Shown here: positions 6,106-48,737 of the stretch, in pieces
Position numbering within the stretch: the stretch's first letter is position 1
Layout: each line of letters starts with the position of its first letter
Sequence record: PZ452607.1
Length of the DNA: 48,737 nucleotides
From: a phage
Direction: 5' to 3' (one strand)
Program-made: the position numbers and the translations under genes
The notes under the pieces: model-generated
What the model saw: the letters and a program-made list of their open reading frames with translations, nothing else
Database searches by the model: none
Told to the model about the DNA's origin: nothing

Positions 6106-6124
6106 CATAAAAACACTTTGACGC

Positions 6125-9143: not shown

Positions 9144-9145
9144 TT

Positions 9146-9826: not shown

Positions 9827-9852
9827 GGGGGCTTGCACCCCCTTATTCATTT
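9827..9852 (+). terminator. probable intrinsic terminator after major tail protein
   Basis: GGGGG..CCCCC stem then T-rich tract. Confidence 0.4.
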
Positions 9853-9887
9853 CTGTAAAATCATCTTATCAACTTTATTCGATTAAC

Positions 9888-9907
9888 TTTTAACAAAAAG
9901 TGCTATC
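9888..9907 (-). promoter_or_regulatory. box copy, antisense orientation, late region
   Basis: Reverse complement reads ATAGCACTTTTTGTTAAAAG. Confidence 0.4.
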
Positions 9908-26874: not shown

Positions 26875-26935
26875 TTCCAGATCTCCAAAATAAAAAACGC
26901 GTAGAAGGATGTTAACCCGCTACGCGTCGTTTGTT

Positions 26936-27388
26936 TTAACTAAAAATGCTATTGGTCGTTCCGATATCTTCCCTCTTCACGACGCGCATAAATTTCTTGT
27001 TCTTGCATCGCTTCTCAAGGCACTTGCCGTTACCGTCAAACTTCAGGTCGAATCGCAACCATGCGGCCCTAAACCCTTTGCACCCCTGTCGGCGGTAAGC
27101 ACGATGCGCAGCTTCAGCGCCTTGCCATGAAATCATATTGCGTTCTTTCCAGCCTTGCACCGTCTGATTGCTAACCTTCAGAGCCTTTGCGCAGGCCGCC
27201 GGGCCGCCGTAATATTCGATAAGGGCATCAAGTCGCGCTCGCAGTCCGGCGCGCGTTTCTTCTTTATGAATATAGAACCCGCAACGCTGGCGAGGCTTTT
27301 TATCTTTACCGCGCCGTGTTCCGTTGTTACCATTGATGTGACGTTTATCGATTTCACCAGTTGACTCTGCGATACGTTGAATACTCAT
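26936..27388 (-). CDS. putative HTH DNA-binding protein
   Basis: Segment GGPAACAKALKVSNQTVQGWK resembles an HTH; basic protein; divergent from helicase gene. Confidence 0.4.
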   Translation of the reverse strand: MSIQRIAESTGEIDKRHINGNNGTRRGKDKKPRQRCGFYIHKEETRAGLRARLDALIEYYGGPAACAKALKVSNQTVQGWKERNMISWQGAEAAHRAYRRQGCKGFRAAWLRFDLKFDGNGKCLEKRCKNKKFMRVVKREDIGTTNSIFS

Positions 27389-27400
27389 CTTGATTCCCCT

Positions 27401-27444
27401 ATAGCACTTTTTGCTAAAAACGTTTACTTTATGCCGTGTATTAT
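27401..27444 (+). promoter_or_regulatory. box + hairpin + -10 element upstream of helicase
   Basis: ATAGCACTTTTTGCTAAAAAC, 22-nt spacer, TATTAT; inverted repeat AACGTTTAC/GTAAACGTT around -10. Confidence 0.5.
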
Positions 27445-27487
27445 AGCGTAAACGTTACAACGATTCAAAGGATTAATAGCCGTGACA

Positions 27488-29500: not shown

Positions 29501-29913
29501 TTACAGACAAAGGTGATTATTTAGAATTTTACGAGAGAGACACAAGCGACACTCGAAAGGAGGATGCTCATCAGGTGGATTGTGTATCTTGGCTGAAATA
29601 CAATTTTCCTCACCTTCTATTTTGGCACACTGTCAATGAAGGTGAAAAAACAATCACATCGGCGCTCAGGGATGAGCAGGCAGGATTACTTAAAGGCGTG
29701 TCAGACTTCGTTATCCTGATTGGTGTTAACTCACGATACCCGTTTGCAGCAATCGAACTTAAGCGGGTTAATAAGTCAGGCAAAGGAAAGGCGTCACCAG
29801 TCAGCGACAAGCAAAGGGAATTTCTCCAAAAGGTCAGGGAGCGTGGCGGCTTCTCTGCCGTCGCATACGGATTCGGGCAATTCAAGATCGCAATTTACGA
29901 AATGATGAAATAG
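29497..29913 (+). CDS. VRR-NUC domain nuclease
   Basis: PD-(D/E)xK-like D..ELK core; overlaps helicase stop, a common helicase/VRR-NUC pairing. Confidence 0.55.
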   Translation: MITDKGDYLEFYERDTSDTRKEDAHQVDCVSWLKYNFPHLLFWHTVNEGEKTITSALRDEQAGLLKGVSDFVILIGVNSRYPFAAIELKRVNKSGKGKASPVSDKQREFLQKVRERGGFSAVAYGFGQFKIAIYEMMK

Positions 29914-29953
29914 CACTTTTTGTTAAAACTGCCGGGATGGAATCTGGCATTAT
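29909..29953 (+). promoter_or_regulatory. box + -10 element upstream of methyltransferase
   Basis: AATAGCACTTTTTGTTAAAAC, 22 nt, CATTAT; TAG of box is the stop of VRR-NUC gene. Confidence 0.45.
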
Positions 29954-29980
29954 TATCTCACCAAAACGAGAGGAATAAAA

Positions 29981-30694: not shown

Positions 30695-30942
30695 TGAGCG
30701 AAAAAATGGTTCCTGTTAAATTAACTGAGCAAGGTTTATGGCTACTTTATCGAGCTACGTGCTGCGAAATTATGGAGCGAAACGGATTGACTCAGGATGT
30801 TATTGGTTGCGATCTGTGGGAGTTCACTAGTTCTCTTGATATGTCTTTCGATGAGATAAAAAATGAATACATAGAGAACTGGCCTTCAATCATACAGAAA
30901 GACGTGGAAGAACTTAAAGCTGATACAATCGTACAGCACTAA
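30691..30942 (+). CDS. hypothetical protein
   Basis: RBS GGTGAGGA; ATGA overlap with previous gene. Confidence 0.4.
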   Translation: MMSEKMVPVKLTEQGLWLLYRATCCEIMERNGLTQDVIGCDLWEFTSSLDMSFDEIKNEYIENWPSIIQKDVEELKADTIVQH

Positions 30943-30976
30943 TTGCTAAAACTACCCGGCGAAAGTCGGGTATAGT
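30935..30976 (+). promoter_or_regulatory. box + hairpin + -10 element
   Basis: AGCACTAATTGCTAAAAC, 22 nt, TATAGT; hairpin ACCCGGC gaaa GTCGGGT. Confidence 0.5.
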
Positions 30977-31008
30977 TATTTCATAGAAACGAAATGAGGA
31001 ATCAGAAG

Positions 31009-32912: not shown

Positions 32913-32956
32913 ATAGCACCTTTTGTTAAAACAGTACCCGCGAAAGCGGGTATTAT
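32913..32956 (+). promoter_or_regulatory. box + hairpin + -10 element upstream of HNH gene
   Basis: ATAGCACCTTTTGTTAAAAC, 22 nt, TATTAT; hairpin ACCCGC gaaa GCGGGT. Confidence 0.5.
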
Positions 32957-32984
32957 TGTTTTATAGAAACAAGAGGAGATTGCA

Positions 32985-35473: not shown

Positions 35474-37042
35474 TTAACCCATCAGTCGAGGATTGATGAA
35501 AACAATATCATCAATCCGGCAAGTGTAGTTCATCTCTTCGAGCGTGATCAGCAGGCTGTCGATTCGCTCAGCTACTTTTTGTTGACCGTTGAACGGCGTA
35601 ACGTTACGGCACTTTGCAACAATGCTATGAATAGGTGCGCGACCTTTGTTCTTCTTTGCGATCTCAGTGATAACATCAATCAGCTTACGAGATTCAGCCT
35701 CATCACCAGCATACCCGGCGGCGCTGGCAGACGACAGATAGGTTCTGGAAAGCTCATTGAAAATCATGATCGCTTCCTGCATTGTTTCAAGGTCAATCTC
35801 ACGGTTGGAACGGTTCGGTGATTCACCCTCCCAGTTCTTGATTGTGTGAAGAACTGAAGCAATGCGCAAAGCGTGCTTATCGAACTTGCCGAGATGACCG
35901 CGTAGCATTGAGTGAGAGTATTTGCCCCCGGCTGCGAAATCCGGCTCCATAGCCTGGCGAGCAAGGTTTAATTCACGCATAGCATTACGGCTTACAGAGA
36001 GAACAACGTTGTCCTCCTTCATAATGTTGTGCACAAGTCGATAATATTTACTCACCAATCCTCGATCGACTTCCTTATACAGTGCATCACCATTTTCATC
36101 GCAAAGAATACGAGTGCCTAAAAGAGGTTCCTCGCGAACCAATAGGAAACGCTCAGATACACCGATACCGCGCTGGCCTGCGTCCATGATACCCTTGATT
36201 GTTTCATCCTGCGCAATGACGCAGATCGAACCGACCGGGCAAAGAGATAAGTTATTGTCCTGATTTGAACGCGCAACCTCCATATGGTTTTTATCCCACG
36301 CCTTGAGGATAAGCTCGCTGTTTGATTTCTTATCAGAACCGCCATAAGTCAGGCCAAGCAATGTATTTATTGCCGTTGCCTCATCAGAGATTACGGAAAA
36401 GTGGCCTTGAACAGCAGCTACTTTCGCAAGACCTTCCGGTGTAGGATCTGATACCGCGAAAACAATATCAGCCATCTTCTTGATCTTCTCTTCCAGTTTT
36501 TCCTTGTCCTCGTACAGCGCCGCCGTCGTGTTACCCTTCGGATCGTTTTTGATTTCCTTCTCGATCTGACGTAGCTGACTGGTTAAACGGATACGTTCCT
36601 TTTTGCGCTCTTCATTCAGTCTCTGAATCTCTGCGCGCATAGGTGTAATCGCCGCTGAGTTAATCGCGGATTTACCTGTTGATGGTGGCTGGCTAATCAC
36701 CATATAAAGAGCGGTCGGTTGTTCTTCTCCGTGATATTGCACCCAAAACTTCCCTAGCATCGCGGCTGAGATGCACCCAATGAAATGAGCGTACGCAGAC
36801 GAAACAGGAAACTGTACAGACTCAGCTTTTGCTTTTGCATATTCGAATACCAGGTTATCGCCACCTAACGAAATCAGCGGGAACTTATCGTTTCCACTGT
36901 TGATATCGATCGGGTCTTGCCAAAACGAAACTGAATCCCCGTAGCTGTTTTCACGAATTGCGATCGCCACCGGATTAACTCCAGTGCTATTTGCGATCTC
37001 AATAATCTGTTGGTAATTCAGTTTTGGCTTAATATTAAACAT
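35474..37042 (-). CDS. P-loop ATPase, putative replication protein (DUF3987-like)
   Basis: Walker A-like PPSTGKS and Walker B-like VIAQDE; RBS AAGGAG before ATG (minus) at 37042; track ORF has 21-codon N-extension. Confidence 0.45.
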   Translation of the reverse strand: MFNIKPKLNYQQIIEIANSTGVNPVAIAIRENSYGDSVSFWQDPIDINSGNDKFPLISLGGDNLVFEYAKAKAESVQFPVSSAYAHFIGCISAAMLGKFWVQYHGEEQPTALYMVISQPPSTGKSAINSAAITPMRAEIQRLNEERKKERIRLTSQLRQIEKEIKNDPKGNTTAALYEDKEKLEEKIKKMADIVFAVSDPTPEGLAKVAAVQGHFSVISDEATAINTLLGLTYGGSDKKSNSELILKAWDKNHMEVARSNQDNNLSLCPVGSICVIAQDETIKGIMDAGQRGIGVSERFLLVREEPLLGTRILCDENGDALYKEVDRGLVSKYYRLVHNIMKEDNVVLSVSRNAMRELNLARQAMEPDFAAGGKYSHSMLRGHLGKFDKHALRIASVLHTIKNWEGESPNRSNREIDLETMQEAIMIFNELSRTYLSSASAAGYAGDEAESRKLIDVITEIAKKNKGRAPIHSIVAKCRNVTPFNGQQKVAERIDSLLITLEEMNYTCRIDDIVFINPRLMG

Positions 37043-37581
37043 CACAATAAACTCCTTAGTTGACGGCGTGAATGATACACCGTCAATGGTACACGCGTTT
37101 TGCAAAAAGTGCTATTCGATCCGTGATTCTCATGAAAACCGTATAGCCTTTCCGCTTCCTTCCTTGCTTTAGCCGCTGCATCCAGCGTCATGAAGGTCCC
37201 TAAGTGTTTTGTCTTTTTATTTATGGTTATGTTTGCCGTGTATCTATTTGTTTTTTTATTCCAATACACTCCCATAACTCCTGTGTTTGATGACACTACT
37301 CCCTTGTTTCTTAGGTTGTCTTGCCTAGTTACTAGCCTGAGATTCTCAATTCTGTTATCGTCTCTTTCATGGTTTATGTGGTCTACATCCATTCCTTCTG
37401 GTATGTTTCCGTAGTGTATTTTCCATACTATTCGATGGGCGTATTCAAATACACCTCCTGGAAAACATATTGACCGATAACCTTTTTTATTAACAGTTCC
37501 GGCAAGTAGATTTCGTCTTCTTCCGATTCTCCACTCTTTCCAGTACAGTCTCCCGCTAACGTATTTCAGTTCATCTTTCAT
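37042..37581 (-). CDS. HNH homing endonuclease
   Basis: HNH core (DHINHERDDNRIENLRLV) plus AP2-like tail; C-terminal about 25 codons read through the promoter box of the downstream gene; stop overlaps next start (TGATG). Confidence 0.7.
   Translation of the reverse strand: MKDELKYVSGRLYWKEWRIGRRRNLLAGTVNKKGYRSICFPGGVFEYAHRIVWKIHYGNIPEGMDVDHINHERDDNRIENLRLVTRQDNLRNKGVVSSNTGVMGVYWNKKTNRYTANITINKKTKHLGTFMTLDAAAKARKEAERLYGFHENHGSNSTFCKTRVPLTVYHSRRQLRSLL
37072..37116 (-). promoter_or_regulatory. box + hairpin + -10 element upstream of ATPase gene (inside 3' end of HNH ORF)
   Basis: Minus strand AATAGCACTTTTTGCAAAAC, 22 nt, TATCAT; inverted repeat TTGACGGTG/CGCCGTCAA around -10. Confidence 0.5.
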
Positions 37582-37994: not shown

Positions 37995-38030
37995 TGTGTT
38001 CGCTCCTGATTGGTTATCTTGAATAAGGCC

Positions 38031-38076
38031 ACTTTATCAAATGACCTTACGGCAATATTAACAAATCGTGCTATTT
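38031..38076 (-). promoter_or_regulatory. box + hairpin + -10 element
   Basis: Minus strand AATAGCACGATTTGTTAA, 22 nt, TAAAGT; box follows TAA stop of acidic-protein gene. Confidence 0.5.
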
Positions 38077-38512: not shown

Positions 38513-38545
38513 TTTTGATTCCTTTGTTTTGTTTGGTATGGGAGT

Positions 38546-38592
38546 AATATACCTTACTCCCCGATGTGTGTCTTTAGCAATTTGTGCTATCA
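38546..38592 (-). promoter_or_regulatory. box + hairpin + -10 element
   Basis: Minus strand GATAGCACAAATTGCTAAAG, about 22 nt, (G)TATATT; stem GGGGAGTA/TACTCCC. Confidence 0.45.
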
Positions 38593-39267: not shown

Positions 39268-39631
39268 ACAATGCCTCCTTAACACGATCCGCTACGAATG
39301 AGTTAACGGTGATTGAATAGTCAGCCACGAAGCAAGGAGCAACACTGCCTGGCTCAGTGCGCATGAATGGTTTATTGAACTGAGTGATTACCTCGCCAGT
39401 ATCGTTATCAATTAAGCGAGACGCGCCTAAGCGGTCCACCACGCGCGTTACGCGGTCCACGCACTCCATTACATCACTTACGTCATAATAGGCGGTTAGA
39501 GCGGCTATCATTGCCTTCTCTTGCTTGTTGTGAATCTTACGCGCAATGTTCTCTATCGCAACGTGCACTTTCTCGTCAGTCTGGATTACCGAGCTGGCTG
39601 AGAAGTCCAGATCTGTGAACTGCTTAAACAT
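39260..39631 (-). CDS. hypothetical early protein (first gene of leftward early block)
   Basis: RBS GAGGAAAG; two tandem box elements upstream. Confidence 0.45.
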   Translation of the reverse strand: MFKQFTDLDFSASSVIQTDEKVHVAIENIARKIHNKQEKAMIAALTAYYDVSDVMECVDRVTRVVDRLGASRLIDNDTGEVITQFNKPFMRTEPGSVAPCFVADYSITVNSFVADRVKEALYE

Positions 39632-39663
39632 AATACTTTCCTCGTTTACTGTTGATGTGATGA

Positions 39664-39709
39664 ATCATACCCAGTAGACATGGATAAGTCGTTAGCAAAA
39701 AATGCTATT
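39664..39709 (-). promoter_or_regulatory. box + -10 element upstream of leftward early block
   Basis: Minus strand AATAGCATTTTTTGCTAACG, 23 nt, TATGAT. Confidence 0.45.
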
Positions 39710-39787
39710 CCAATAATTGCTCATTATTCCATCAATACTGGAATATCTGGAATAATCACTATCATGATTGATCTCTAATGATGAGAT

Positions 39788-39827
39788 GTGATTGTTGCAT
39801 GGTGTGCAACTGTTGATGTGATTGTTT
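39788..39827. repeat. direct repeats GATGTGATTGTT (third related copy near 39652)
   Basis: gatgtgattgttgca...ctgttgatgtgattgtttc; ctgttgatgtgatgaatca at 39650..39668. Confidence 0.5.
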
Positions 39828-39893
39828 CTTAGAATGCAATGATTGTGAGAGGGGGGATCTAGTGTTACCAGGTTCGCCTGGTAGTCATCTCCA

Positions 39894-39915
39894 TTTTTAG
39901 CAAAAAGTGCTATCG
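39894..39915 (-). promoter_or_regulatory. box copy, second (distal) copy upstream of leftward early block
   Basis: Minus strand GATAGCACTTTTTGCTAAAAAT followed by hairpin ACCAGG cgaa CCTGGT. Confidence 0.4.
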
Positions 39916-40190
39916 ATTACGATTACGCTTGATTGCGTGTTAATCATTGTATATGATTTGCCTAAATCGCAATCGTATACAAAATTACGCCAAATTACGC
40001 CTTATAATATACATATAGATATATGTATATATATAATATATAAGTGTTTTTTTTATTTATATATATAGATACTATTATTTGTAATATGGTTGTATAGCGT
40101 GTCTTTTATGTTAATCGTTGGATGCTCTGATTATGATGCTCATGTTTATATATACAGTAGTTTTATCGGCGCATATTTATTTAGGGAAAT

Positions 40191-40217
40191 CGATTAACAC
40201 GATTAACACGATTAACC
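40191..40217. repeat. tandem 9-bp repeat CGATTAACA x3
   Basis: cgattaaca cgattaaca cgattaacc; related copies CGATTACGATTACG at 39914..39927 and AAATTACGCC x2 at 39982..40001. Confidence 0.6.
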
Positions 40218-40260
40218 ACACTTAAAATCGCCCCGCAGACCTTGACACATGCGGGTCGTC

Positions 40261-40293
40261 GTGTAACACTACGATTAGAGACACGGTGTTACA
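40261..40293. repeat. inverted pair GTGTAACAC ... GTGTTACA upstream of first rightward early gene
   Basis: Half-sites about 17 bp apart, just downstream of a TTGACA hexamer at 40242. Confidence 0.5.
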
Positions 40294-40331
40294 TGTTAAT
40301 CATGGTGTATATTGAAACTAAGGAGAAAGCT

Positions 40332-40907
40332 ATGAGTTCTTACCAGTCAGACGCAGTACAGGCAGCAATCAAGGCAGCTTACGAGAAGGCCGGAGTAACG
40401 GTTGAGCAGCGACCGGAGGCAAAAGTGACCGATGTTATCCGGGCCGCCTGCGATCAGCTTTATGGTGATGGCGAGAATACCGAGTTCACATTCGACGCGA
40501 ATAAGATGGCTGAGGCCGCAGCAAGAAAGTCGATGCCAGACGCTGACGAACATGATGTTGCCAAAGGCGCCGAGTCCTGGTTGCTCGGGAAGACGGATGA
40601 GATTAACGAGAAGTTTAAATCCTCATTCATCACCCCGATCGTTTCTCGACACTTCTCCAAGATCGGCAAGTCGGTCAAGGTGAGCGTGACCATGAACGAT
40701 GAGAAGTTGCGAGTCGTTACTATCTCAGTGAGTGACGAAGAAGTTCCGGTGAAGAAGCGCCGCAGCCGGAAAAAAGTCAGCCTGGCTGATTGTCTGGATT
40801 CGTTTGTTCCTGATGTTGATGATCTTGAGAAAGGCGACGTTACTGTAAGCACCGTGCGCGACCTGGTTCGCCAGATGAAAGCGCATATCGAAAAATGTGG
40901 ACTGTAA
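40332..40907 (+). CDS. hypothetical early protein (first gene of rightward early block)
   Basis: RBS AAGGAGAAAG before ATG 40332; preceded by iteron-rich control region; basic C-terminal patch KKRRSRKK. Confidence 0.45.
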   Translation: MSSYQSDAVQAAIKAAYEKAGVTVEQRPEAKVTDVIRAACDQLYGDGENTEFTFDANKMAEAAARKSMPDADEHDVAKGAESWLLGKTDEINEKFKSSFITPIVSRHFSKIGKSVKVSVTMNDEKLRVVTISVSDEEVPVKKRRSRKKVSLADCLDSFVPDVDDLEKGDVTVSTVRDLVRQMKAHIEKCGL

Positions 40908-40919
40908 GGAGAAGTAATT

Positions 40920-41246
40920 ATGTTTAATATCAAACCATTAACAGAAGCAGAGAAACAGGCTCAGGCCAAGCAAACCGAAAACATCCAAGTGATCGCTGAT
41001 GCGCTGATTGGTAAGAGGTCAATCAAAATAAACCTCGACACTGTTGGTCAGTCATTTTTTACTAAAGGTTTGGATAAGTACGTTATAAATGTGAAGGCGA
41101 GAGACCTGGTGGCGAGAATTCAAAAGCTAAACAATCAAAAGCTAAAGCTCATCAAGGTCGAAGGCAACATGTGCGAAATTGAGAACCTCAGCGCACCAGA
41201 CCCGAATAAGTGGGAAATCACCGATGTCGAGTTTATCGTAGAATAG
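40920..41246 (+). CDS. hypothetical protein
   Basis: RBS AAGGAGAAG; stop TAG lies inside a box copy. Confidence 0.45.
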   Translation: MFNIKPLTEAEKQAQAKQTENIQVIADALIGKRSIKINLDTVGQSFFTKGLDKYVINVKARDLVARIQKLNNQKLKLIKVEGNMCEIENLSAPDPNKWEITDVEFIVE

Positions 41247-41286
41247 CACTTTTTGTTAAAACCGGATCGGGGTATCTTGCTATAGT
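41243..41286 (+). promoter_or_regulatory. box + hairpin + extended -10 element
   Basis: AATAGCACTTTTTGTTAAAAC, 22 nt, TGcTATAGT; stem GGGGTA/TACCCC. Confidence 0.55.
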
Positions 41287-41324
41287 TACCCCATCAAAAC
41301 GAGATACCAATCAGAGGAATCACC

Positions 41325-41555
41325 ATGTCAATCGTCAAGAACCAGCAAGCCATCGATTCAACCAATAACAACCGCTTTGCTATTTTCATCACTCGCGACA
41401 ACAAGCGCTTTGCAGTAAAGGCCGTACCAGGTGGATACAAAACCTACATGGAAGATAACGGAAAGTGGGTGCGGTGCGACAACCTCGCAAACTTCTTGGT
41501 CTGGAACGCAGACCTGCAGGGATTCGATGACATCAGCACTTTAATTGAGGAGTAA
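41325..41555 (+). CDS. hypothetical protein
   Basis: RBS AGAGGAA; box/hairpin/-10 element upstream. Confidence 0.45.
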   Translation: MSIVKNQQAIDSTNNNRFAIFITRDNKRFAVKAVPGGYKTYMEDNGKWVRCDNLANFLVWNADLQGFDDISTLIEE

Positions 41556-41560
41556 TAATC

Positions 41561-41788
41561 ATGCCACGTTACAGCAACCTAACTCAACTAACCCGCGTCA
41601 ACGGGCACATGATCCCGGCAAAATCCACTCACTACGCAATGGGAGCAAAGCACGGATTGTATTTCAAATGGCGCGGTCAATGGAACTTCACGGTTATTCG
41701 TAATTTCTACATTAGAGTTACAGGTGATGACCCGCAATCGGTCGTAGAGAACTCAATCGGCGACAACAAGATCGAGGTGCTGAAATGA
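41561..41788 (+). CDS. hypothetical protein
   Basis: RBS GAGGAG shortly after previous stop. Confidence 0.45.
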   Translation: MPRYSNLTQLTRVNGHMIPAKSTHYAMGAKHGLYFKWRGQWNFTVIRNFYIRVTGDDPQSVVENSIGDNKIEVLK

Positions 41789-41895
41789 ACTTCAACATAA
41801 TTGCTTTCTGGTCTGCCGTATGGTTCTTTTGCGTAGGTCATGTTGTGGTTGGAATCGTAATCATGTTGCTACTGTGTGCGGGAGCGTTCGAATGA
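41785..41895 (+). CDS. small hydrophobic membrane peptide (36 aa)
   Basis: ATGA overlap with previous gene; one predicted TMD; not in ORF track. Confidence 0.35.
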   Translation: MNFNIIAFWSAVWFFCVGHVVVGIVIMLLLCAGAFE

Positions 41896-42065
41896 TGCGG
41901 ATTCTGATTTGCATGATGGCGGCGGTCGCCATGGCTATCCTGGTAGTGTCCGGCTGCGGCGAGGCCAGGGATAGCTGTCATGAAACCGGGAGCCAGGTTA
42001 CTACTTTCGTGATGGTTGGCAACGTATTGCTACCAATAACATCAAATGAAATCACTTGCGAATAG
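41892..42065 (+). CDS. small lipoprotein (57 aa)
   Basis: Signal peptide with lipobox VVSGC; start overlaps stop of preceding peptide; stop inside a box copy. Confidence 0.4.
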   Translation: MMRILICMMAAVAMAILVVSGCGEARDSCHETGSQVTTFVMVGNVLLPITSNEITCE

Positions 42066-42105
42066 CACTTTTTGTTAAAACTCAACTCCGGGGTTGCGAT
42101 ATAGT
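42061..42105 (+). promoter_or_regulatory. box + hairpin + -10 element
   Basis: AATAGCACTTTTTGTTAAAAC, 22 nt, TATAGT; stem GGGGTT/AACCCC. Confidence 0.55.
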
Positions 42106-42136
42106 AACCCCATCGACAACGAACGAGGACGCAAAC

Positions 42137-42625
42137 ATGAAAATTAAATTACTTAGCAATGGCGGTTACAAGGGATTCACCCGCGACCTGGAAGCTGACC
42201 CTATCGTGGTTGACGCGGTTAAGTGCGACTCAAGTACTGGAGGCTACCGCGTTAAGGTTGATGACCTTGTAAAAGCTGGCGTGTACGATCTTGATTATGG
42301 CCTGTCGGTTAGCCCGGTATTTGGCCCAGCTGACTTCAACGAGAAAGACGGAACGATGTTCTTTTTTGATTGGGAAGTGAAGGCAAACATCAAGCCGCGC
42401 AAGGTTCGTCTTCTCAGCAATGGCGGCTACCCGATGCGACCAGGTTATGAGAATCGCACGTTCCCGGTTATCGTTGACTTCATTGGGACAACTGACAACT
42501 TGGTATACGTTAGCCATGAGCAACTTAAGGCAGTTGGATTCGTTGGCGGTATGAATAAAGAAGCGCTTTGCTTCTTCCATCGATGTCCAGAGCCGATCGG
42601 TATTGAGTGCGAGTTAGTATACTAA
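42137..42625 (+). CDS. hypothetical protein with internal duplication
   Basis: Two copies of K(I/V)(K/R)LLSNGGY motif about 100 residues apart; box/-10 element upstream. Confidence 0.45.
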   Translation: MKIKLLSNGGYKGFTRDLEADPIVVDAVKCDSSTGGYRVKVDDLVKAGVYDLDYGLSVSPVFGPADFNEKDGTMFFFDWEVKANIKPRKVRLLSNGGYPMRPGYENRTFPVIVDFIGTTDNLVYVSHEQLKAVGFVGGMNKEALCFFHRCPEPIGIECELVY

Positions 42626-42666
42626 GCACGAATTGTTAAAAGGGGATTTGGCCTGACTGGTATAAT
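42621..42666 (+). promoter_or_regulatory. box + hairpin + extended -10 element
   Basis: AAGCACGAATTGTTAAAAG, 22 nt, TGgTATAAT; stem GGGGATT/AATCCCC. Confidence 0.55.
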
Positions 42667-42696
42667 CCCCACATCAACCACTAATAGGAAAGCATC

Positions 42697-42894
42697 ATGT
42701 TAAAATTAAAAGATATTCAGTTCCCTGTAGTATTTAACACTATTAGCTGCGGTAAAATAACCTGCCACAGCAAAGATCGCGCAACAGATTCATCATTCAA
42801 TGAGTGCCACCCGTCTATTGTTGGTAATCTTATTGAGCTTCATAACAATCACAATCCTGATAACATCCCATCTCTTCCATATTATGTTGAGTGA
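42697..42894 (+). CDS. hypothetical protein
   Basis: Cys/His-containing 65-aa ORF downstream of box/-10 element with TATAAT. Confidence 0.4.
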   Translation: MLKLKDIQFPVVFNTISCGKITCHSKDRATDSSFNECHPSIVGNLIELHNNHNPDNIPSLPYYVE

Positions 42895-42984
42895 GTCGGG
42901 CCTGGTTGGAAGGTTGGTCGCTCCATCTTCCATGCAGCAAAGCCAGAAATCAAGCCAGCGCTACAATGCACTCAGATCGAGAAC

Positions 42985-43182
42985 ATGCCATTGAGCGCGA
43001 CACTAAAAGGTGTCCAACTTGATAGCGAATCCTGGATCGAGATTACCGCCACGCCTAAAACTATTGAGGTACATGATGATGTGGTGATTCTCCTGTTGCA
43101 TTACGGCAGCTTTAAGCACAAGACGGTATCAGGTGAAATCAGCATTAAGCGCGGAACTCTTGTCCGCTACGAGGTGAAATAA
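42985..43182 (+). CDS. hypothetical protein
   Basis: ORF with weak RBS. Confidence 0.3.
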   Translation: MPLSATLKGVQLDSESWIEITATPKTIEVHDDVVILLLHYGSFKHKTVSGEISIKRGTLVRYEVK

Positions 43183-43331
43183 TGACTGCATGGGTCTTGA
43201 TTATCTTGATGAGCAAAGGTCCGGATCACGTATACATGGAAAGTCAACAATCATGCAACAAGGCACGGGAAGTTATCGCAGAGAACAAGCCGTTCGGATA
43301 TGAAGTAAAAACTATGTGCGTTAAACGATAG
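43182..43331 (+). CDS. small hypothetical protein (49 aa)
   Basis: ATGA coupling with previous gene; N-terminal hydrophobic stretch; stop TAG inside box. Confidence 0.3.
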   Translation: MTAWVLIILMSKGPDHVYMESQQSCNKAREVIAENKPFGYEVKTMCVKR

Positions 43332-43371
43332 CACGAATTGCTAAACCTTCCGCAAGGCCATTTGATATAGT
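43327..43371 (+). promoter_or_regulatory. box + hairpin + extended -10 element
   Basis: GATAGCACGAATTGCTAAAC, 22 nt, TGaTATAGT; stem GGCCA/TGGCC. Confidence 0.55.
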
Positions 43372-43411
43372 GGCCTTATTGAAGCACGACAACCAACTGG
43401 AGGTAAAATTT

Positions 43412-43786
43412 ATGAAATTCGAATGTATCAGCGATAACACCAAAAAATTTACTGTTGGCAAAATTTACGATGTTCCGACTGAGCACACAGAGCAAACCGT
43501 AGCTCTGACCGACGACACGGGCCGCAACCGAATTGCAACCGTAACTCACAACGGTGAAGGTCTTCGCTGGAATAGCGGCGGCACTAAGTTCGCAACGTTC
43601 GACAAGAAGCGCAAGCGCACCTTCCGCGTCAACGGCAATGTTGCAGCTAACAAGATCCATAACGTCAAGCCGTCGGAAGTTGACCGCAAGCCAGCGCTGA
43701 AGTTTAAAGAGAAGGTGGATTTATTCAATCTTGCCGCCTCGCTTGTTCTCCTGGTCGCTGCTATTTCGCTGCTTTCCATCATGTAA
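43412..43786 (+). CDS. hypothetical C-tail-anchored membrane protein
   Basis: RBS GGAGG; soluble basic domain then one C-terminal TMD; followed by terminator. Confidence 0.45.
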   Translation: MKFECISDNTKKFTVGKIYDVPTEHTEQTVALTDDTGRNRIATVTHNGEGLRWNSGGTKFATFDKKRKRTFRVNGNVAANKIHNVKPSEVDRKPALKFKEKVDLFNLAASLVLLVAAISLLSIM

Positions 43787-43793
43787 TGCTAAT

Positions 43794-43828
43794 GGGGAAT
43801 CGACTCTGAACGGTTCCCCTTTCTTTTG
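43794..43828 (+). terminator. intrinsic terminator
   Basis: GGGGAA..TTCCCC stem then T-rich tract. Confidence 0.5.
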
Positions 43829-43934
43829 GAGAAAACACTATGCCAGACTTTTCTAACTGGAATAACGAGCCGCCATCATTTCAGGAGTTGCTATTCTGCC
43901 TCCTGGTCCTGACATTATCTCTTAAGGGTGTTTT

Positions 43935-44153
43935 ATGGCTACTATCATGACAGTAGAAGATGCAGCACGCGATGCAGTGGAAGGAATGCGCCCAAATACC
44001 TCCAGAATAGCACACTACTACAAATCTGAGGTGTCGGTAGTGCAATTGGTCCACGAAATTTTAAGGCTCCCACAAGTCGATTCAGCGCGCGTTGTGACGT
44101 GCTTAAAAAATTATTTTTGCATCACTATTAAAACGAATAGCACGAATTGCTAA
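43935..44153 (+). CDS. hypothetical protein
   Basis: 72-aa ORF; 3' end reads through box copy; overlaps a possible 36-aa hydrophobic ORF at 43840..43950. Confidence 0.3.
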   Translation: MATIMTVEDAARDAVEGMRPNTSRIAHYYKSEVSVVQLVHEILRLPQVDSARVVTCLKNYFCITIKTNSTNC

Positions 44154-44180
44154 AACCTATCAAGGGGAATACGCTATGAT
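44136..44180 (+). promoter_or_regulatory. box + hairpin + -10 element
   Basis: AATAGCACGAATTGCTAAAAC, 22 nt, TATGAT; stem GGGGAAT/ATTCCCC. Confidence 0.55.
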
Positions 44181-44210
44181 TCCCCTACACCAACAAACGA
44201 GGAAGCGATC

Positions 44211-44657
44211 ATGAAACACTTAATCTGCATTGAAGCGCCTAACGATCAATACACCCTGCATGGACTTGGTGTGTTCAAAGGTCACTACATTACCGCAGGA
44301 ACTTACGATGCTCGTCGCGGCGATGGCGACCTAATGATTACGTCAAAAGAAGTAAATCCGTACATCATGCAGAATCTTGGCAATAACGAATATATGGCCT
44401 ATGGCTGCAACGCGGTGTACAAGCACGTTAAGATCCGCAAGCGTGTTGTGCGTGCATTCAAGAAGATTGCAATTAAATACTGGAAAATGAGCAAGAAAGA
44501 TGCCGGACGTTGGGCGCGCAACGTTGCAGATTCATACTTCTATCGTAACGGCGAATCCTGCTACTTCCTGATCGATGAACTTATGGAAAACTACGGTGGC
44601 GACTTCAGCCAGGGTAGCTTTGATGACTGGGCCAACTATGAGATCAGTTGCTGGTAA
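44211..44657 (+). CDS. hypothetical protein
   Basis: RBS GAGGAAG; box/hairpin/-10 element upstream. Confidence 0.45.
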   Translation: MKHLICIEAPNDQYTLHGLGVFKGHYITAGTYDARRGDGDLMITSKEVNPYIMQNLGNNEYMAYGCNAVYKHVKIRKRVVRAFKKIAIKYWKMSKKDAGRWARNVADSYFYRNGESCYFLIDELMENYGGDFSQGSFDDWANYEISCW

Positions 44658-44700
44658 TAGCACGAATTGCTAAAACTTGCTCAAGGGCATTTGTTAGAAT
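44656..44700 (+). promoter_or_regulatory. box + hairpin + extended -10 element
   Basis: AATAGCACGAATTGCTAAAAC, 22 nt, TGtTAGAAT; stem AAGGGCATT/AATGCCCTT. Confidence 0.55.
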
Positions 44701-44740
44701 GCCCTTCGTTGAGTTAAGCAACCAATCAGAGGAATAAATC

Positions 44741-45271
44741 ATGGATAAAATCACAATTTGGGGCCAGACAATCAACCTGTTTCTCGGCACGCGCCGAGTG
44801 GCAATCTTTGACTTTGACGGGACACTTAGCGATGGATCTGGTCGACTTCACCTGCTGCCAACAAAGGATTTGCACTTGACTGAAAGCTGGTCTGAGTTTA
44901 ACCGAGCGGCAATATTTGATAACCCAATCCAGAGCACGATCGATGTGATGAACTCTATGTTTGCCGCTGGGTATCATGTGATCATTTTAACCGGGCGAAG
45001 TGATGAGGTGCGTTACGCATCTGAGTTATGGCTTAAGCATCACGGCGCTCGATATGATTACTTAGTCATGCGACCGCATACCGACAACCGCAAAGACACG
45101 GTAATGAAAGAAGAGGCAGTGCGCGCTATCGGCATTGATAACATTCTTGCGGCTTGGGATGACTCAGTGAATATAATAAAAAAATTCAGAGATCTAGGGA
45201 TAACCACATATCAGGTTTGTGAATATGCCTGTGATAGTCGAGAGGATTTAAATAGTCATGGTGTCGATTGA
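44741..45271 (+). CDS. HAD-superfamily phosphatase
   Basis: Motif I FDFDGT, motif II ILTGR, motif IV WDDS. Confidence 0.6.
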   Translation: MDKITIWGQTINLFLGTRRVAIFDFDGTLSDGSGRLHLLPTKDLHLTESWSEFNRAAIFDNPIQSTIDVMNSMFAAGYHVIILTGRSDEVRYASELWLKHHGARYDYLVMRPHTDNRKDTVMKEEAVRAIGIDNILAAWDDSVNIIKKFRDLGITTYQVCEYACDSREDLNSHGVD

Positions 45272-45752
45272 TAACAAATCAATGGTAAGAGAGTTATTTA
45301 CTTATTCTGACGGCGTTCTGTATTGGAAGGCCAAATCATCTAAATACAGTAGAACTAAAATAGGAGGCGCGGCAGGAAGCAAGGATAAAGACGGATACAT
45401 AATAATCAGAGTAAGAAACGAAACTAGAGGCGCTCACAGGCTTGTATGGATATACCATAATGGCAAGATACCTGATGGAATGGAGGTAGACCATATGGAT
45501 GGAGACATAACAAACAATAGAATAGAAAACCTAAGATTGGTAACGAGAACCATAAATAACAGGAATCAAAAAAAGAGATCTGATAACACAACCGGAGTAT
45601 CCGGTGTAACTTTCATGAAAGATAGAGGAAAGTATAGGGCGCAAGTTAGAAACAAGAGACTCGGGCAGTTCGACACAATAGAAGAGGCCGCCAAAGCAGT
45701 AAAGGATGAGCGGGATAGATTAGGTTTATTCACAAAAAGACACGGGGTGTAA
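45258..45752 (+). CDS. HNH homing endonuclease
   Basis: HNH core (DHMDGDITNNRIENLRLV) plus AP2-like tail; lies between phosphatase and kinase genes. Confidence 0.75.
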   Translation: MVSIDNKSMVRELFTYSDGVLYWKAKSSKYSRTKIGGAAGSKDKDGYIIIRVRNETRGAHRLVWIYHNGKIPDGMEVDHMDGDITNNRIENLRLVTRTINNRNQKKRSDNTTGVSGVTFMKDRGKYRAQVRNKRLGQFDTIEEAAKAVKDERDRLGLFTKRHGV

Positions 45753-45754
45753 AC

Positions 45755-46327
45755 ATGAAAACAGCTATCATTTTAAACGGCGCACCTGGTGCGGGAAAGG
45801 ACACTATCGGATGCATCCTGGCTGACACTTACGATCATGTAGCGCTACGCAGCTTCAAAGCGCCAATGTTTGAGATTGCCCGAGCAATCCTGGGTGAGAC
45901 TAATTTCGAGTATTTCATGTTCTTGTATGAGGACCGTCGCTATAAAGAAGAGCCAGCGTCAATCCTGAACGGTAAAAGCCCGCGCCAGTTTATGATCTGG
46001 ATTAGCGAGGAGGTCATCAAGCCGCAGTTCGGAAATCGCTTCTTCGGTATGCGAGCGGAAAGTAAGGTGAAAGAGTCGCATTCACTTTCGGTATTTACTG
46101 ACGGTGGATTCAAAGACGAGATCTTGCAGATGATTGAAGGTGACATCCAGGTCAAGCTGTGTCGAATCCATCGCAACGGTTGCAACTTTGACAACGACAG
46201 TCGCGACTATATCTATCTTGACGATATGATCGGGGTCAACGGTTATCAGGAGTGTGACTTCTTTTCTGTCGAAGGCCATCCAGAAATTACCGCTCAGCAC
46301 ATAGCCGCCACGTTCATCAATAAATAG
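45755..46327 (+). CDS. P-loop nucleotide/polynucleotide kinase
   Basis: Walker A GAPGAGKDT at N-terminus; size fits dNMP kinase or Pnk kinase domain. Confidence 0.55.
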   Translation: MKTAIILNGAPGAGKDTIGCILADTYDHVALRSFKAPMFEIARAILGETNFEYFMFLYEDRRYKEEPASILNGKSPRQFMIWISEEVIKPQFGNRFFGMRAESKVKESHSLSVFTDGGFKDEILQMIEGDIQVKLCRIHRNGCNFDNDSRDYIYLDDMIGVNGYQECDFFSVEGHPEITAQHIAATFINK

Positions 46328-46367
46328 CACGAATTGCTAAAACGTCGGTGTGGTGATTTGATATAGT
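46323..46367 (+). promoter_or_regulatory. box + extended -10 element
   Basis: AATAGCACGAATTGCTAAAAC, 22 nt, TGaTATAGT; TAG of box is the kinase stop codon. Confidence 0.55.
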
Positions 46368-46399
46368 TACCTCATCGACAACGAAGAGAGAAAATCGAA

Positions 46400-46609
46400 A
46401 TGATGGTATCAACTGATAAGTTTTTCACTTGCACCAAAACTTCTGAGGTATTCGAGCTGGTTCATACTGACAACGGTGATTTCATGCATGACGGTTGCGA
46501 CGCTTTCATTGAAGTGAAAGAAAGCGACTATGACGACGGAGTTTATTACAACCCTGCGGTTAACACGCAGTTTTTTACCCCGATCGAAGAGGAAGGAGAA
46601 GAGGCATGA
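46400..46609 (+). CDS. small acidic hypothetical protein
   Basis: 69 aa, acidic C-terminus (EEEGEEA); box/-10 element upstream. Confidence 0.4.
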   Translation: MMVSTDKFFTCTKTSEVFELVHTDNGDFMHDGCDAFIEVKESDYDDGVYYNPAVNTQFFTPIEEEGEEA

Positions 46610-46950
46610 TCACGATTAACCTGTCAGATAAACAAGCGCGTGAAATACTAGACACTATCGGAGAACAGCTTCACGTAAAAGGCGATACCGCTGAGATTCT
46701 TAACCAGATCGAAAGACAGCTAACCCCTGTGTCGACGAATCAAGCTGAGTTCGCAGCATGGAAAAGCGAACGCATCCTGCCAAATATCATCAAGGCATGG
46801 AAGCGCAAGCATAAAAAAGAAATCAACGTTGAGGATTTATTTACCGATGAATTAAGTCCTTCAAATGTTGCTCAATACCAGTTGCGATACATGGAGTCGG
46901 TTTGCAATCAGGTTTTAGGTGTAAGTTTTTCATTCAAAGGTGATAAATAA
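46606..46950 (+). CDS. hypothetical protein
   Basis: ATGA overlap coupling. Confidence 0.45.
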   Translation: MITINLSDKQAREILDTIGEQLHVKGDTAEILNQIERQLTPVSTNQAEFAAWKSERILPNIIKAWKRKHKKEINVEDLFTDELSPSNVAQYQLRYMESVCNQVLGVSFSFKGDK

Positions 46951-47180
46951 TGTTCGGTTTAAGCGAAGCGGAGTGGAATGTTGTAAAGCGTGCCGCGAAA
47001 GAATTAAACAAATTCGTCAGCGGAATGAAGAAAGAAGATCGGAAAAACGACAAGATTATGATTGACGTAATTTCGACTCACCATAAAAAGGTCGAACTAC
47101 TCATTGACCGCTACAAATTTGTCTGGACTGCCGGGTATATTGCAGGGCGCGTAGGTAACAAAGAGGGGGATTATGAATAA
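46950..47180 (+). CDS. hypothetical protein
   Basis: Overlap coupling. Confidence 0.4.
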   Translation: MFGLSEAEWNVVKRAAKELNKFVSGMKKEDRKNDKIMIDVISTHHKKVELLIDRYKFVWTAGYIAGRVGNKEGDYE

Positions 47181-47383
47181 TGGCCAATTTACCAAAGAAA
47201 GGCGATCAGGTTCGATGTGTCACTTCACGCAATGGTAATGCTTTATCGGCGGGGTGCTTGTACGACGTAGAAAAAGTCAGTAAGTCAAAGAGGCTTGTAT
47301 TCGTGTACGGCGACGATGGAAATCTGCATGAGATTGATTACCCGCAGGATGTAACTAATGGTCAATTCGAAATTAATGATTGA
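47180..47383 (+). CDS. hypothetical protein
   Basis: Overlap coupling. Confidence 0.4.
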   Translation: MANLPKKGDQVRCVTSRNGNALSAGCLYDVEKVSKSKRLVFVYGDDGNLHEIDYPQDVTNGQFEIND

Positions 47384-47409
47384 CCTAAATCCCTGAGCGG
47401 TGATAGTAT
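47380..47409 (+). promoter_or_regulatory. sigma70-like promoter (TTGACC-18-TAGTAT, TG-extended)
   Basis: Hexamers upstream of a structured leader and small ORF 47548..47709. Confidence 0.4.
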
Positions 47410-47547
47410 TAATCCCGTAGACAGACGAGGCGCAACTAAGCGCAACGCGTGAGACGATTCTCACACTTCCAGCTAACAAGCTCGGTTGCATAGTGGTTAA
47501 GCAACGCCGCAGACCCGTAAGCGGCAACAATTCAAGAGGATTGCATA

Positions 47548-47709
47548 ATGCAAAAAACTAAAGACGAATCAGTCAAAATTGAAATTAAAGTAACTCGCAA
47601 CGGTGAAACCACTCGTTATAAAAAACGATTAAATCCTGGCGAGGCTGTTATTGGTCGCATTGCTGGCGTTATGATTAAGGCGCAGGAAGATGAAGCGATT
47701 CAAAGTTAA
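47548..47709 (+). CDS. small hypothetical protein (53 aa)
   Basis: RBS AAGAGGA before ATG; preceded by structured about 140-nt leader; not in track. Confidence 0.3.
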   Translation: MQKTKDESVKIEIKVTRNGETTRYKKRLNPGEAVIGRIAGVMIKAQEDEAIQS

Positions 47710-47875
47710 ATTAATTATTCGAAAGATGGGAATGTTTTGCCAGTCGTGCAAGCAATCTTTCGAAGCTGAATTATCAGCAACCAGTCAGGATGAAGCCATC
47801 ACGAAAGCAAAAAAACTTTCCGGCGCTAACCTTGACACTCACAAAATAAATATTGAATTAATCAAGGAGATTTAA
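47690..47875 (+). CDS. hypothetical protein
   Basis: 61-aa ORF; start uncertain (internal Met at 47726). Confidence 0.3.
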   Translation: MKRFKVKLIIRKMGMFCQSCKQSFEAELSATSQDEAITKAKKLSGANLDTHKINIELIKEI

Positions 47876-47876
47876 C

Positions 47877-48104
47877 ATGACAATTTTTTTATTAATTATC
47901 GCTGGTGTCATTATTTTTGGTGCTGGTTTGTTTGCTGGCTTCGCACTTGTGGCGGCAGCAATTGCGATGGACGCGAAGGATAAAACTGGTGTATGGCTGA
48001 CCTACTCACCTAAGAAGGACCAATGGGAAATGACTGGCGACCTTGCTCACTGCTATTCTAAAGCTAAGACCCACCATAAAGGCATTAAACGACGATTGTC
48101 GTGA
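47877..48104 (+). CDS. hypothetical membrane protein
   Basis: N-terminal hydrophobic helix; followed by terminator. Confidence 0.4.
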   Translation: MTIFLLIIAGVIIFGAGLFAGFALVAAAIAMDAKDKTGVWLTYSPKKDQWEMTGDLAHCYSKAKTHHKGIKRRLS

Positions 48105-48114
48105 TGAACACTAA

Positions 48115-48156
48115 CCCGCTCCGGCGGGTTTTTTTATGCCTGCAATATGGTAAAAT
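48115..48156 (+). promoter_or_regulatory. terminator hairpin then extended -10 promoter (TGgTAAAAT) upstream of terminase small subunit
   Basis: CCCGC tccg GCGGG then T7 (same family as 13849/16028 hairpins); TGGTAAAAT at 48148..48156. Confidence 0.45.
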
Positions 48157-48174
48157 AGCACTAAATGTTAAACA
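48156..48174 (+). promoter_or_regulatory. degenerate box copy in leader of terminase small subunit gene
   Basis: ATAGCACTAAATGTTAAAC directly after the extended -10. Confidence 0.35.
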
Positions 48175-48188
48175 AAGAGGATGTATTT

Positions 48189-48713: not shown

Positions 48714-48737
48714 CTTTAGGGGCGCGAGAGCGCCCAC

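Follow-up and report, generated by a model that had tools for sequence, protein, structure and literature searches.

Intergenic promoter cassettes of coliphage T1 are interleaved with a predicted sense-RNA hairpin under selection

The window analyzed here, that is the whole stretch of 48,737 nucleotides (nt) in sequence record PZ452607.1, corresponds to coliphage T1 (Tunavirus T1, Drexlerviridae), with 99.9% identity to AY216660/NC_005833 and a circularly permuted sequence, such that window positions equal T1 positions + 39793 for the left end and T1 positions - 9043 elsewhere. Between many genes of this phage lies a compact repeated cassette, in which a conserved sequence box is followed at a fixed distance by a -10 promoter hexamer and accompanied by an inverted repeat. 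Throughout, the 38 nt after each T1 box were folded as RNA, giving a minimum free energy (MFE, in kcal/mol) and a z score against dinucleotide shuffles. The cassette on which this study centers is:

41244..41293 (+), focal cassette: box 41244-41260; arms GGGGTA 41269-41274 / TACCCC 41287-41292; -10 TGC+TATAGT with the hexamer 41281-41286 in the loop; predicted transcription start (+1) A 41293; MFE -13.4, z -2.7.

The upstream open reading frame (ORF; 40920-41246) ends with the TAG of this box as its stop codon. The arrangement is typical, in that the stop codon of the upstream gene usually is the box TAG or adjoins the box (41244, 42063, 43329, 46325, 29911 and others), and the Shine-Dalgarno (SD) sequence and ATG of the next gene lie about 60-75 nt beyond the box.

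The box, TAGCACnnnTTGYTAAA, occurs in 23 copies in the T1 window at up to two mismatches, compared with 0.7 expected. Its extended 21-nt consensus is aaATAGCACnnnTTGYTAAAA, and it is identical to the 21-nt direct repeat aaATAGCACnnnTTGnTAAAA known from phage TLS. That repeat has been reported as co-oriented with transcription, ~76 nt upstream of start codons, divided into A, T and G subtypes and also present in T1, Rtp and Rogue1; its authors considered that it might serve as a stoperator, an enhancer site or an UP element, and the 2024 re-annotation of TLS gave only three sigma70-like promoters (PMC11447400). The TLS paper considered the repeat alone, and both a fixed -10 located 22 nt downstream and the stem-loops are absent from its description (PMC11447400). 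Literature searches likewise returned no published description of promoter-embedded stem-loops in T1-like phages.

Searching IMG/VR for the box by exact pattern identified 274 unique instances from T1-like phages, and their gapless alignment on the box revealed a fixed layout. Counted from the T of the box, a TATAAT-like hexamer occupies positions 37-42 (A38 in 82% and T42 in 80% of instances), preceded by the TG of an extended -10 element (T34 45%, G35 77%); positions 45-48 are C-rich, and a C precedes a conserved A49 (76%), which we take as the probable +1. Numbered from this predicted start, TTGYTA lies at -40..-35 with the box centered at -42, TGn-TATAAT at -15..-7 (hexamer -12..-7) and the C-rich segment at -6..-1, while a CA-rich leader, ATCGAAACGA, follows +1 and precedes the SD and ATG. 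Almost no information is present in the 22-nt gap between TTGYTA and the -10 or at -6..-2 (box positions 19-33 and 43-47). No -35 element is found 16-18 nt from the -10 in the box-aligned set, and a canonical sigma70 consensus scan of 39600-48737 yielded counts not above shuffles and missed every cassette promoter. By sequence, the cassettes instead resemble extended -10 sigma70 promoters, for which a -35 is dispensable, with TGn joined to a TATAAT-like hexamer and a purine start 6-8 nt further on. Fragments of at most 150 base pairs (bp) from upstream of T1 dam and orf65 have been found to drive green fluorescent protein expression both in phage-free E. coli and in a cell-free extract (PMC6737242). 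These published active fragments carry the dam box (29911) and the orf65 box (44138), and their activity in phage-free cells therefore indicates that host RNA polymerase is sufficient.

The box itself (41244-41260 in the focal cassette, with 22 further copies) is a near-palindrome, TAGCA-N5-TGCTA, with its center ~42 nt upstream of the predicted start, a position that matches class II activator geometry in a promoter with no -35 at normal spacing. Candidate readers may include the host alpha-subunit C-terminal domain or sigma, or a phage helix-turn-helix (HTH) protein such as Pir or Orf65. An RNA hairpin inside the box (UAGCA-N5-UGCUA, with Y12 giving G-C or G.U) was rejected, as variant T1 boxes show no compensation. 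Sigma54 and sigma32 readings of the box and of a CCCCAT motif were also discarded because their spacing is wrong; relative to sigma54 (-24/-12; TGGCAC-N5-TTGC), the box reads TAGCAC-N3-TTGY, with AG for GG and a spacing 2 nt too short. Downstream of the start, +1..+11 (A-T-C-G-A-A/C-A-A-C-G-A; G-poor and U-poor) is conserved among cassettes and phages, e.g. at 41293-41303 and 42112-42122, to a degree that exceeds the needs of an SD spacer. This segment may enhance translation, stabilize the transcript or bind a protein.

The original prediction had described ten inverted repeats downstream of boxes; all ten are present where it placed them, and several T1 stems are longer than it wrote, e.g. 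AAGGCCATT/AGTGGCCTT at 43354-43377. Among 16 promoter-type T1 box copies, 14 folded with MFEs of -8.6 to -15.8 kcal/mol (z -1.6 to -4.8). Its claim of a hairpin at each box holds for most copies but not for 39691(-), where folding gave no hairpin (z +0.5), nor for 9889(-) and 48156(+), which lack a convincing one, 48156 also lacking a -10. We assembled a non-redundant set of 94 cassettes from T1-like contigs, with mutual identity below 75% over the relevant 40 nt, and compared it with shuffles that keep the -10 and with chimeras built from the 5' and 3' halves of different cassettes, which retain the position-specific G-rich/C-rich composition. Mean MFE was -9.6 kcal/mol, compared with -4.6 for shuffles (Mann-Whitney p 4e-18) and -6.4 for chimeras (p 4e-9), and stems of at least 7 Watson-Crick pairs were found in 43% of cassettes as opposed to 3.9% of shuffles. 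Further, two preferred registers, i+j=57 and 73-76, were 4-10 times commoner than in partner-permuted controls.

Stems measure 6-13 bp and loops 4-21 nt, and with a simple stem finder, on which the assignment rests, the hairpins fall into two classes. Class 1 (22/61 hairpins) comprises tight hairpins lying entirely within the 22-nt gap, with a 3' arm that runs up to or into the start of the -10 hexamer (e.g. GCCCGGC-gaga-GTCGGGC-ATAAT) and the -10 outside the stem-loop. Class 2, with loops of 4-20 nt, pairs a 5' arm from the gap with a 3' arm that occupies the discriminator and most often stops precisely at -1; the -10 then falls within the loop or the 3' arm. Arms sit nowhere but in the 22-nt gap and the 6-nt discriminator, the only stretches that neither promoter nor leader constrains, and this restriction would account for the two hairpin classes and for class-2 stems ending at -1. 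The notion that the stem encloses the -10 consequently describes about half of the hairpins, whereas class 1, about a third, lies wholly upstream of it.

Several asymmetries distinguish the two strands. A stem finder scoring G.T and A.C equally returned internal G.T:A.C ratios of 32:9 in the non-redundant set (about 3.6x) and 105:22 in all unique sequences, versus 103:127 in shuffles. With special-loop bonuses off, the sense strand was more stable than the antisense strand (mean -10.0 vs -8.5 kcal/mol; 61 vs 31 cases; Wilcoxon p 4e-5). Of 82 unique hairpins with a tetraloop, 16 carry GNRA and 4 carry UNCG loops, the latter being RNA-specific stabilizers, versus 2 of the reverse-complement types, with 4.7% expected by chance. 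Folded with DNA parameters, the hairpins are no more stable than -2 to -7 kcal/mol, and the G.U-rich stem at 46325 collapses on the antisense strand (RNA sense -14.9 kcal/mol; DNA antisense -1.8 kcal/mol). The G.T bias and the sense-strand stability thus indicate that it is the sense strand on which selection acts, the loop types suggest that this strand folds as RNA, and a symmetrical cruciform is ruled out. The original prediction had allowed for structure either in DNA or in read-through RNA, and the G.T, stability and loop biases favor the sense strand and read-through RNA over a cruciform or single-stranded DNA.

Hairpin presence was also found to depend on gene context. Comparing non-redundant cassettes, hairpins of -8 kcal/mol or below occur in 79% of those with an upstream co-directional ORF of at least 40 codons and in 11% of those without (n=67 and 9; Fisher p 1.2e-4). 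T1 cassettes without an upstream co-directional gene are either hairpin-less (39691(-), 9889(-), 6125(-)) or atypical (27402, 39896(-)), and hairpin-less cassettes retain the same box and -10. The hairpin therefore tracks the upstream co-directional ORF and not the promoter itself.

Closer examination of stem evolution revealed extensive replacement with retained pairing. Using only the box and leader as anchors, with 31 free positions between them, the same flanks were found with at least six different complementary arm pairs, including GGGGTT/AACCCC, ATGTGGTT/AACCACAT, GGGATAA/TTATCCC, GATGCGC/GCGCATC and GGCGCTGC/GTAGCGCC, and also with class-1 hairpins such as CCGGA-gcaa-TCCGG. In the box-aligned set, position-by-position covariation gave no more than z 4-5 (i+j=73 diagonal), the mixture of hairpin registers among cassettes weakening the signal, and register-free tests were used instead. 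Among close orthologues from Tunavirus relatives (flanks 75-95% identical), where changes were counted as distinct and are not phylogenetically independent, T1-defined stem positions changed ~2.2x more slowly than unpaired non-promoter positions (0.12 vs 0.27 distinct changes per site). The 34 distinct stem changes comprised 2 that were fully compensatory, 14 exchanges between Watson-Crick and G.U pairs and 18 that break a pair, such that pairing was retained in 16/34 (47%) versus roughly 17-30% expected, a modest signal. Full compensation is seen at 42063, where GGGG/CCCC became GTGG/CCAC in relatives, and at 42624, where GGGGATT/AATCCCC became GGTGATT/AATCACC in phage SA32RD. Covariation among homologous sites is thus strong between paralogous and distant copies but only moderate among close orthologues. 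The earlier argument from compensatory change to selection on complementarity is borne out by the folding excess together with the covariation. Taken together, these sequence-based findings argue that the T1 hairpin is a selected sense-RNA hairpin interleaved with a putative promoter.

The remaining cassettes of the window are given below, those at 46325, 38057(-) and 38573(-) being additions to the original prediction, with hairpins as good as the ones it listed.

42063..42112 (+), cassette: box 42063-42079; arms GGGGTTGC 42090-42097 / GTAACCCC 42104-42111; -10 TATAGT 42100-42105; predicted +1 42112; MFE -14.9, z -3.9.
42624..42673 (+), cassette: box 42624-42640; arms GGGGATT 42642-42648 / AATCCCC 42664-42670; TGG+TATAAT, hexamer 42661-42666; predicted +1 42673; MFE -15.8.
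43329..43378 (+), cassette: box 43329-43345; arms AAGGCCATT 43354-43362 / AGTGGCCTT 43369-43377; TGA+TATAGT, hexamer 43366-43371; MFE -12.9, z -3.9.
44138..44187 (+), cassette upstream of orf65: box 44138-44154; arms AGGGGAAT 44163-44170 / ATTCCCCT 44179-44186; -10 TATGAT 44175-44180; MFE -11.9, z -3.8.
44658..44707 (+), cassette: box 44658-44674; arms AAGGGCATTT 44683-44692 / AGAATGCCCTT 44697-44706; TGT+TAGAAT, hexamer 44695-44700; MFE -13.8.
46325..46379 (+), cassette: box 46325-46341; stem 46344-46358 / 46365-46379 of 13-15 bp with several G.U pairs; -10 TATAGT 46362-46367.
27402..27456 (+), box and repeat: box 27402-27418; AACGTTTAC / GTAAACGTT at about 27419-27428 / 27447-27456 with a 20-nt loop; -10 TATTAT 27439-27444; MFE -9.6, z -2.0.
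29911..29960 (+), cassette upstream of dam: weak class-1 hairpin TGCCGG 29930-29935 / CTGGCA 29944-29949; -10 CATTAT/TATTAT around 29948-29956; MFE -8.6, z -1.6.
30934..30983 (+), class-1 cassette: TACCCGGC 30953-30960, GAAA loop, GTCGGGTA 30965-30972, with one G.U pair; -10 TATAGT 30971-30976 overlapping the end of the 3' arm; MFE -13.5, z -3.6.
32914..32963 (+), class-1 cassette: stem 32933-32941 / 32946-32954, GAAA loop, then TATTATTGTTTT; MFE -14.9, z -4.8.
37060..37114 (-), cassette: box 37114-37098; arms 37086-37077 / 37069-37060 (TTGACGGTG / CGCCGTCAA, one U.G pair); -10 TATCAT 37077-37072; MFE -12.5.
38023..38073 (-), cassette: box 38073-38057; 12-bp stem 38050-38039 / 38034-38023, in which one U.G pair of T1 is U-A in relatives; -10 TAAAGT 38036-38031; MFE -14.0, z -4.5.
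38540..38589 (-), cassette: box 38589-38573; arms GGGGAGTA 38561-38554 / TACTCCC(C) 38547-38540; -10 TATATT at about 38551-38546; MFE -12.7, z -4.0.
26896..26951 (-), degenerate box: box 26951-26935; 9-bp hairpin 26928-26916 / 26908-26896, then a T-run; directly after the pir ORF and labeled a rho-independent terminator in the GenBank T1 record.

A number of boxes depart from this arrangement. The cassette at 37098(-) lies entirely, with box, hairpin and -10, within the 3' end of an HNH endonuclease ORF (37042-37581(-)), which overlaps the start of the downstream ATPase gene and so places a promoter/hairpin cassette within coding sequence; insertion of a homing-endonuclease gene beside a cassette would fit this arrangement. 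Two perfect boxes with leftward orientation, antisense to the late operon, occupy the intergenic gaps that follow ORF 9092-9814 (9852-9905(-)) and ORF 5338-6105 (6085-6141(-)). The former, 9889(-), has TGA-TAAGAT in register, lies opposite a + strand terminator hairpin, GGGGGcttgcaCCCCC, and is conserved in relatives; it may be an antisense promoter or specify a small RNA. A perfect box at 39859-39912(-), near the physical left end of the T1 genome in the 600 bp of non-coding sequence that separate the leftward from the rightward early operon, has no recognizable -10 and is followed by ACCAGG-cgaa-CCTGGT at an unusual distance. The box at 48156-48172 also has no -10, the ribosome-binding site and ATG of the next ORF following within 12 nt (48113-48210), which indicates that a box can exist without the promoter half; immediately upstream of it is a canonical terminator, AACCCGCtccgGCGGGTT + TTTTT, at 48113-48130.

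The simplest reading of these observations, missed by the original prediction, is that the cassette is probably a composite promoter/terminator (attenuator) unit. Each compact intergenic cassette would interleave two signals, namely a host sigma70-type extended -10 promoter and a sense-RNA stem-loop. Transcription that continues past the upstream gene would copy the whole stretch from box to -10 into RNA, and the nascent sense RNA would fold into the hairpin. This hairpin would attenuate or terminate the read-through transcript, shield the upstream mRNA from 3'-exonucleases, or do both. Most expression of the downstream gene would then start at its own extended -10 promoter, giving an unstructured CA-rich leader that lacks the hairpin. 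From sequence statistics and folding, and by analogy with known elements, we infer the position of the +1, the existence of read-through RNA and an effect of the hairpin on that RNA, as well as its presumed role as attenuator or 3'-end protector.

Independent database annotations speak for the termination half of this proposal. Five class-2 cassette hairpins are labeled rho-independent terminators (WebGeSTer/TransTermHP) in the record of phage SA32RD, and GenBank AY216660 and OL960578 label several cassette hairpins terminators, AY216660 including that of the 32914 cassette (T1 41978-42000 = window 32935-32957). A canonical intrinsic terminator, defined by a GC-rich stem, a 3-8 nt loop and a U tract within 0-2 nt, was found for a subset of class 1 only. 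A lambdoid nut/boxB site was rejected, as the conserved box is followed by a hairpin of variable sequence, loop and distance and no Rfam match exists. Rfam searches at gathering threshold over the whole window gave no matches, and Pfam gave nothing informative when ten early proteins were scanned for a possible RNA-binding protein or antiterminator.

A number of observations weigh against a composite promoter/terminator unit. A terminator scan of 39600-48737 gave counts no higher than in shuffles and called no class-2 cassette hairpin, their tails being A/C-rich; a T-rich tail (at least 5 T in the next 10 nt) follows only 11/22 class-1 hairpins; and the discriminator shows no T enrichment relative to hairpin-less cassettes. 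Given that half of class 1 lacks a T tail and that the discriminator is not T-enriched, canonical intrinsic termination is not what is selected. Hairpin-less cassettes show no difference in compensating hairpins upstream of the box (p 0.22), pair-breaking changes account for more than half of those among close orthologues, and the 27419 repeat has no upstream co-directional gene. Moreover, the sense-strand bias would also be expected of a hairpin in the non-template DNA strand, and literature searches found no T1 transcript maps.

A more elaborate version of the composite unit would include a hand-off from terminator to promoter. As the class-2 3' arm ends at -1, a polymerase releasing its RNA at a class-2 hairpin would be left on the next -10/+1 and could re-initiate without leaving the DNA, with the box recapturing sigma or RNA polymerase. 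We regard this as improbable; were it true, each gene would have its own new transcript, starting with the common CA-rich leader, regardless of how much transcription arrives from upstream, and the built-in recycling of polymerase after termination would explain why box, 22-nt gap and hairpin are conserved as a unit.

Among the alternatives, it is unlikely that the hairpin instead marks or bounds a cut in polycistronic early RNA, made by RNase III in the stem or by RNase E beside it, as in T7. Such processing would be consistent with a structure in sense RNA between cistrons and with the conserved single-stranded CA/A-rich leader directly after the hairpin, and a 3' hairpin left after cleavage would stabilize the upstream fragment. 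RNase III requires roughly 20 bp of double-stranded RNA (two helical turns), far more than the 6-13 bp stems offer, and the processing site that the original prediction suggested is accordingly unlikely for this enzyme. Further, the freely varying stems contain no conserved cleavage motif, the U-poor leader is unfavorable for RNase E, and the lack of an Rfam family match also counts against processing. Within the composite unit, the hairpin may still have a role in RNase E-type processing or in 3'-end protection.

We consider improbable a DNA-level device in which the non-template strand or a cruciform folds and holds the -10 single-stranded in the loop, thereby aiding or gating open complex formation. 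Class-2 3' arms mostly end at -1 with the -10 in the loop, the sense-strand bias is compatible with a non-template-strand hairpin, and the absence of a -35 at normal spacing across the 22-nt gap makes unusual help in initiation possible. Against these points, the class-1 hairpins do not contain the -10, the hairpins, with loops of 6-20 nt, are weak under DNA parameters, with the antisense arm of a cruciform weaker still, and UNCG loops stabilize RNA specifically. Hairpin-less cassettes keep the box and -10, hairpin presence depends on the upstream gene, and T1 encodes no N4-like virion RNA polymerase, a phage RNA polymerase being unreported in the TLS/T1 literature. The single-stranded-DNA promoter raised in the original prediction is not supported, given the weak DNA folding, the intact promoters of hairpin-less cassettes and the position of the -10 in class 1.

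Recombination offers another explanation, in which stems are by-products or substrates of modular exchange, as in the mini-circles of promoter-early stem-loops (PeSLs), and not RNA signals. Comparing T1 with 17 relatives, 82/153 homology-block endpoints (9/30 distinct clusters; endpoints are not phylogenetically independent) fall inside cassettes, which make up 9% of the early region. Between 40100 and 47500, gene insertions and replacements relative to close relatives start and stop at cassettes, with breakpoints for example at 41242-41244, 42059-42065, 43396-43403 and 44734-44741. In addition, one Eco_BIFF-like contig carries a chimeric cassette with a GGGATAA (type-C) 5' arm and a TAACCCC (type-A) 3' arm, recombined within the loop, whose stem is broken. 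This chimera illustrates that exchange within loops destroys arm complementarity, whereas complementarity is family-wide and bears a G.U/sense-strand signature not expected of a DNA-level by-product; the 17-21-nt box and conserved leader alone can explain shuffling. It is therefore quite improbable that recombination accounts for the stems.

That the repeats are operators bound by dimeric phage regulators (Pir/orf23, Orf65 or another HTH protein) overlapping the -10 is very improbable, for although T1 encodes several HTH regulators acting on these promoters (PMC6737242), the arms differ wholly between cassettes and between orthologous sites, such that no single protein could read them, and G.T tolerance and GNRA/UNCG loops are meaningless for duplex operators. 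The reading applies at most to the 27419 repeat, which lies in the divergent control region (27389-27481) between pir (orf23, a P22 C2-like repressor) and helicase, and whose CGTTT...AAACG core is conserved and not covarying, being kept in distant Tempevirinae relatives; this repeat is a doubtful member of the hairpin set and may be a Pir operator instead of an RNA hairpin.

Although T1-like phages (Drexlerviridae) are abundant, serve in therapy and have long been known as laboratory contaminants, their transcription signals are essentially unmapped. What is new here is the placement of the 21-nt repeat a fixed 22 nt from a predicted extended -10, together with a sense-RNA hairpin interleaved with the promoter, which provides a testable model for the start and insulation of about 15-20 transcription units per genome. 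It should also allow better promoter and terminator annotation of hundreds of deposited genomes and could supply compact insulating promoter parts for phage engineering.

Several known systems combine some of these features. The N4 virion RNA polymerase promoters and F plasmid Frpo share with T1 an inverted repeat at a promoter, but depend on a conserved hairpin (5-7 bp, 3-nt loop) or a long single-stranded DNA fold and on a dedicated polymerase or single-stranded DNA entry, whereas the T1 hairpins have no constant sequence or position, fold weakly as DNA and carry RNA-type signatures. Hairpins of repetitive extragenic palindromic (REP) elements, T4 intergenic CUUCGG/GNRA hairpins and RNase III-processed T7 3' ends block 3'-exonucleases; they are likewise sequence-independent intercistronic hairpins of the sense RNA, and T1 tetraloop enrichment matches their extra-stable loops, but unlike those of T1 they are not interleaved with a promoter. 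Relative to intrinsic terminators, including the 'I-shaped' WebGeSTer class without a U tract, T1 class 1 is alike in its GC-rich 6-13 bp stem, its GNRA/UNCG loop and its position after a stop codon, although only half of class 1 has a T-rich tail, the tail being the -10 itself; class 2 differs in its 4-20 nt loops and A/C-rich tail.

The closest known element is the PeSL of the T4-like myoviruses RB49/phi1, PST and nt-1 (Arbiol et al. 2010, PMC2839356; Comeau et al. 2014, PMC4122927), and the T1 cassettes are probably a new example of a known design and not a new mechanism. Both are repeated intergenic cassettes reaching from an upstream stop codon to the next SD/ATG and concentrated among small early ORFans, with a host sigma70-type promoter and a stable stem-loop, often a G-run/C-run with G-T pairs, located between promoter elements or over the -10. 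PeSLs mediate modular gene shuffling (PMC2839356, PMC4122927), and homology breakpoints and chimeric cassettes are common to both. The differences are that T1 is a siphovirus of the Drexlerviridae with no sequence homology to PeSLs, that PeSLs have a -35 at 17 bp and an AT-rich UP region whereas the T1 box ends 22 nt from the -10 in promoters of extended -10 type, and that T1 cassettes also occur in replication and lysis regions. For PeSLs the logic of a hairpin against read-through combined with a promoter for each gene has been demonstrated by experiment, one PeSL stem-loop having cut lacZ expression as strongly as rrnB T1 (PMC2839356); the corresponding activity is predicted for T1. With this comparison the PeSL concept, in which a promoter-terminator cassette is also a unit of recombination, is no longer limited to T4-like myoviruses but reaches an unrelated family of siphoviruses, which suggests convergent evolution of the promoter-terminator cassette design.

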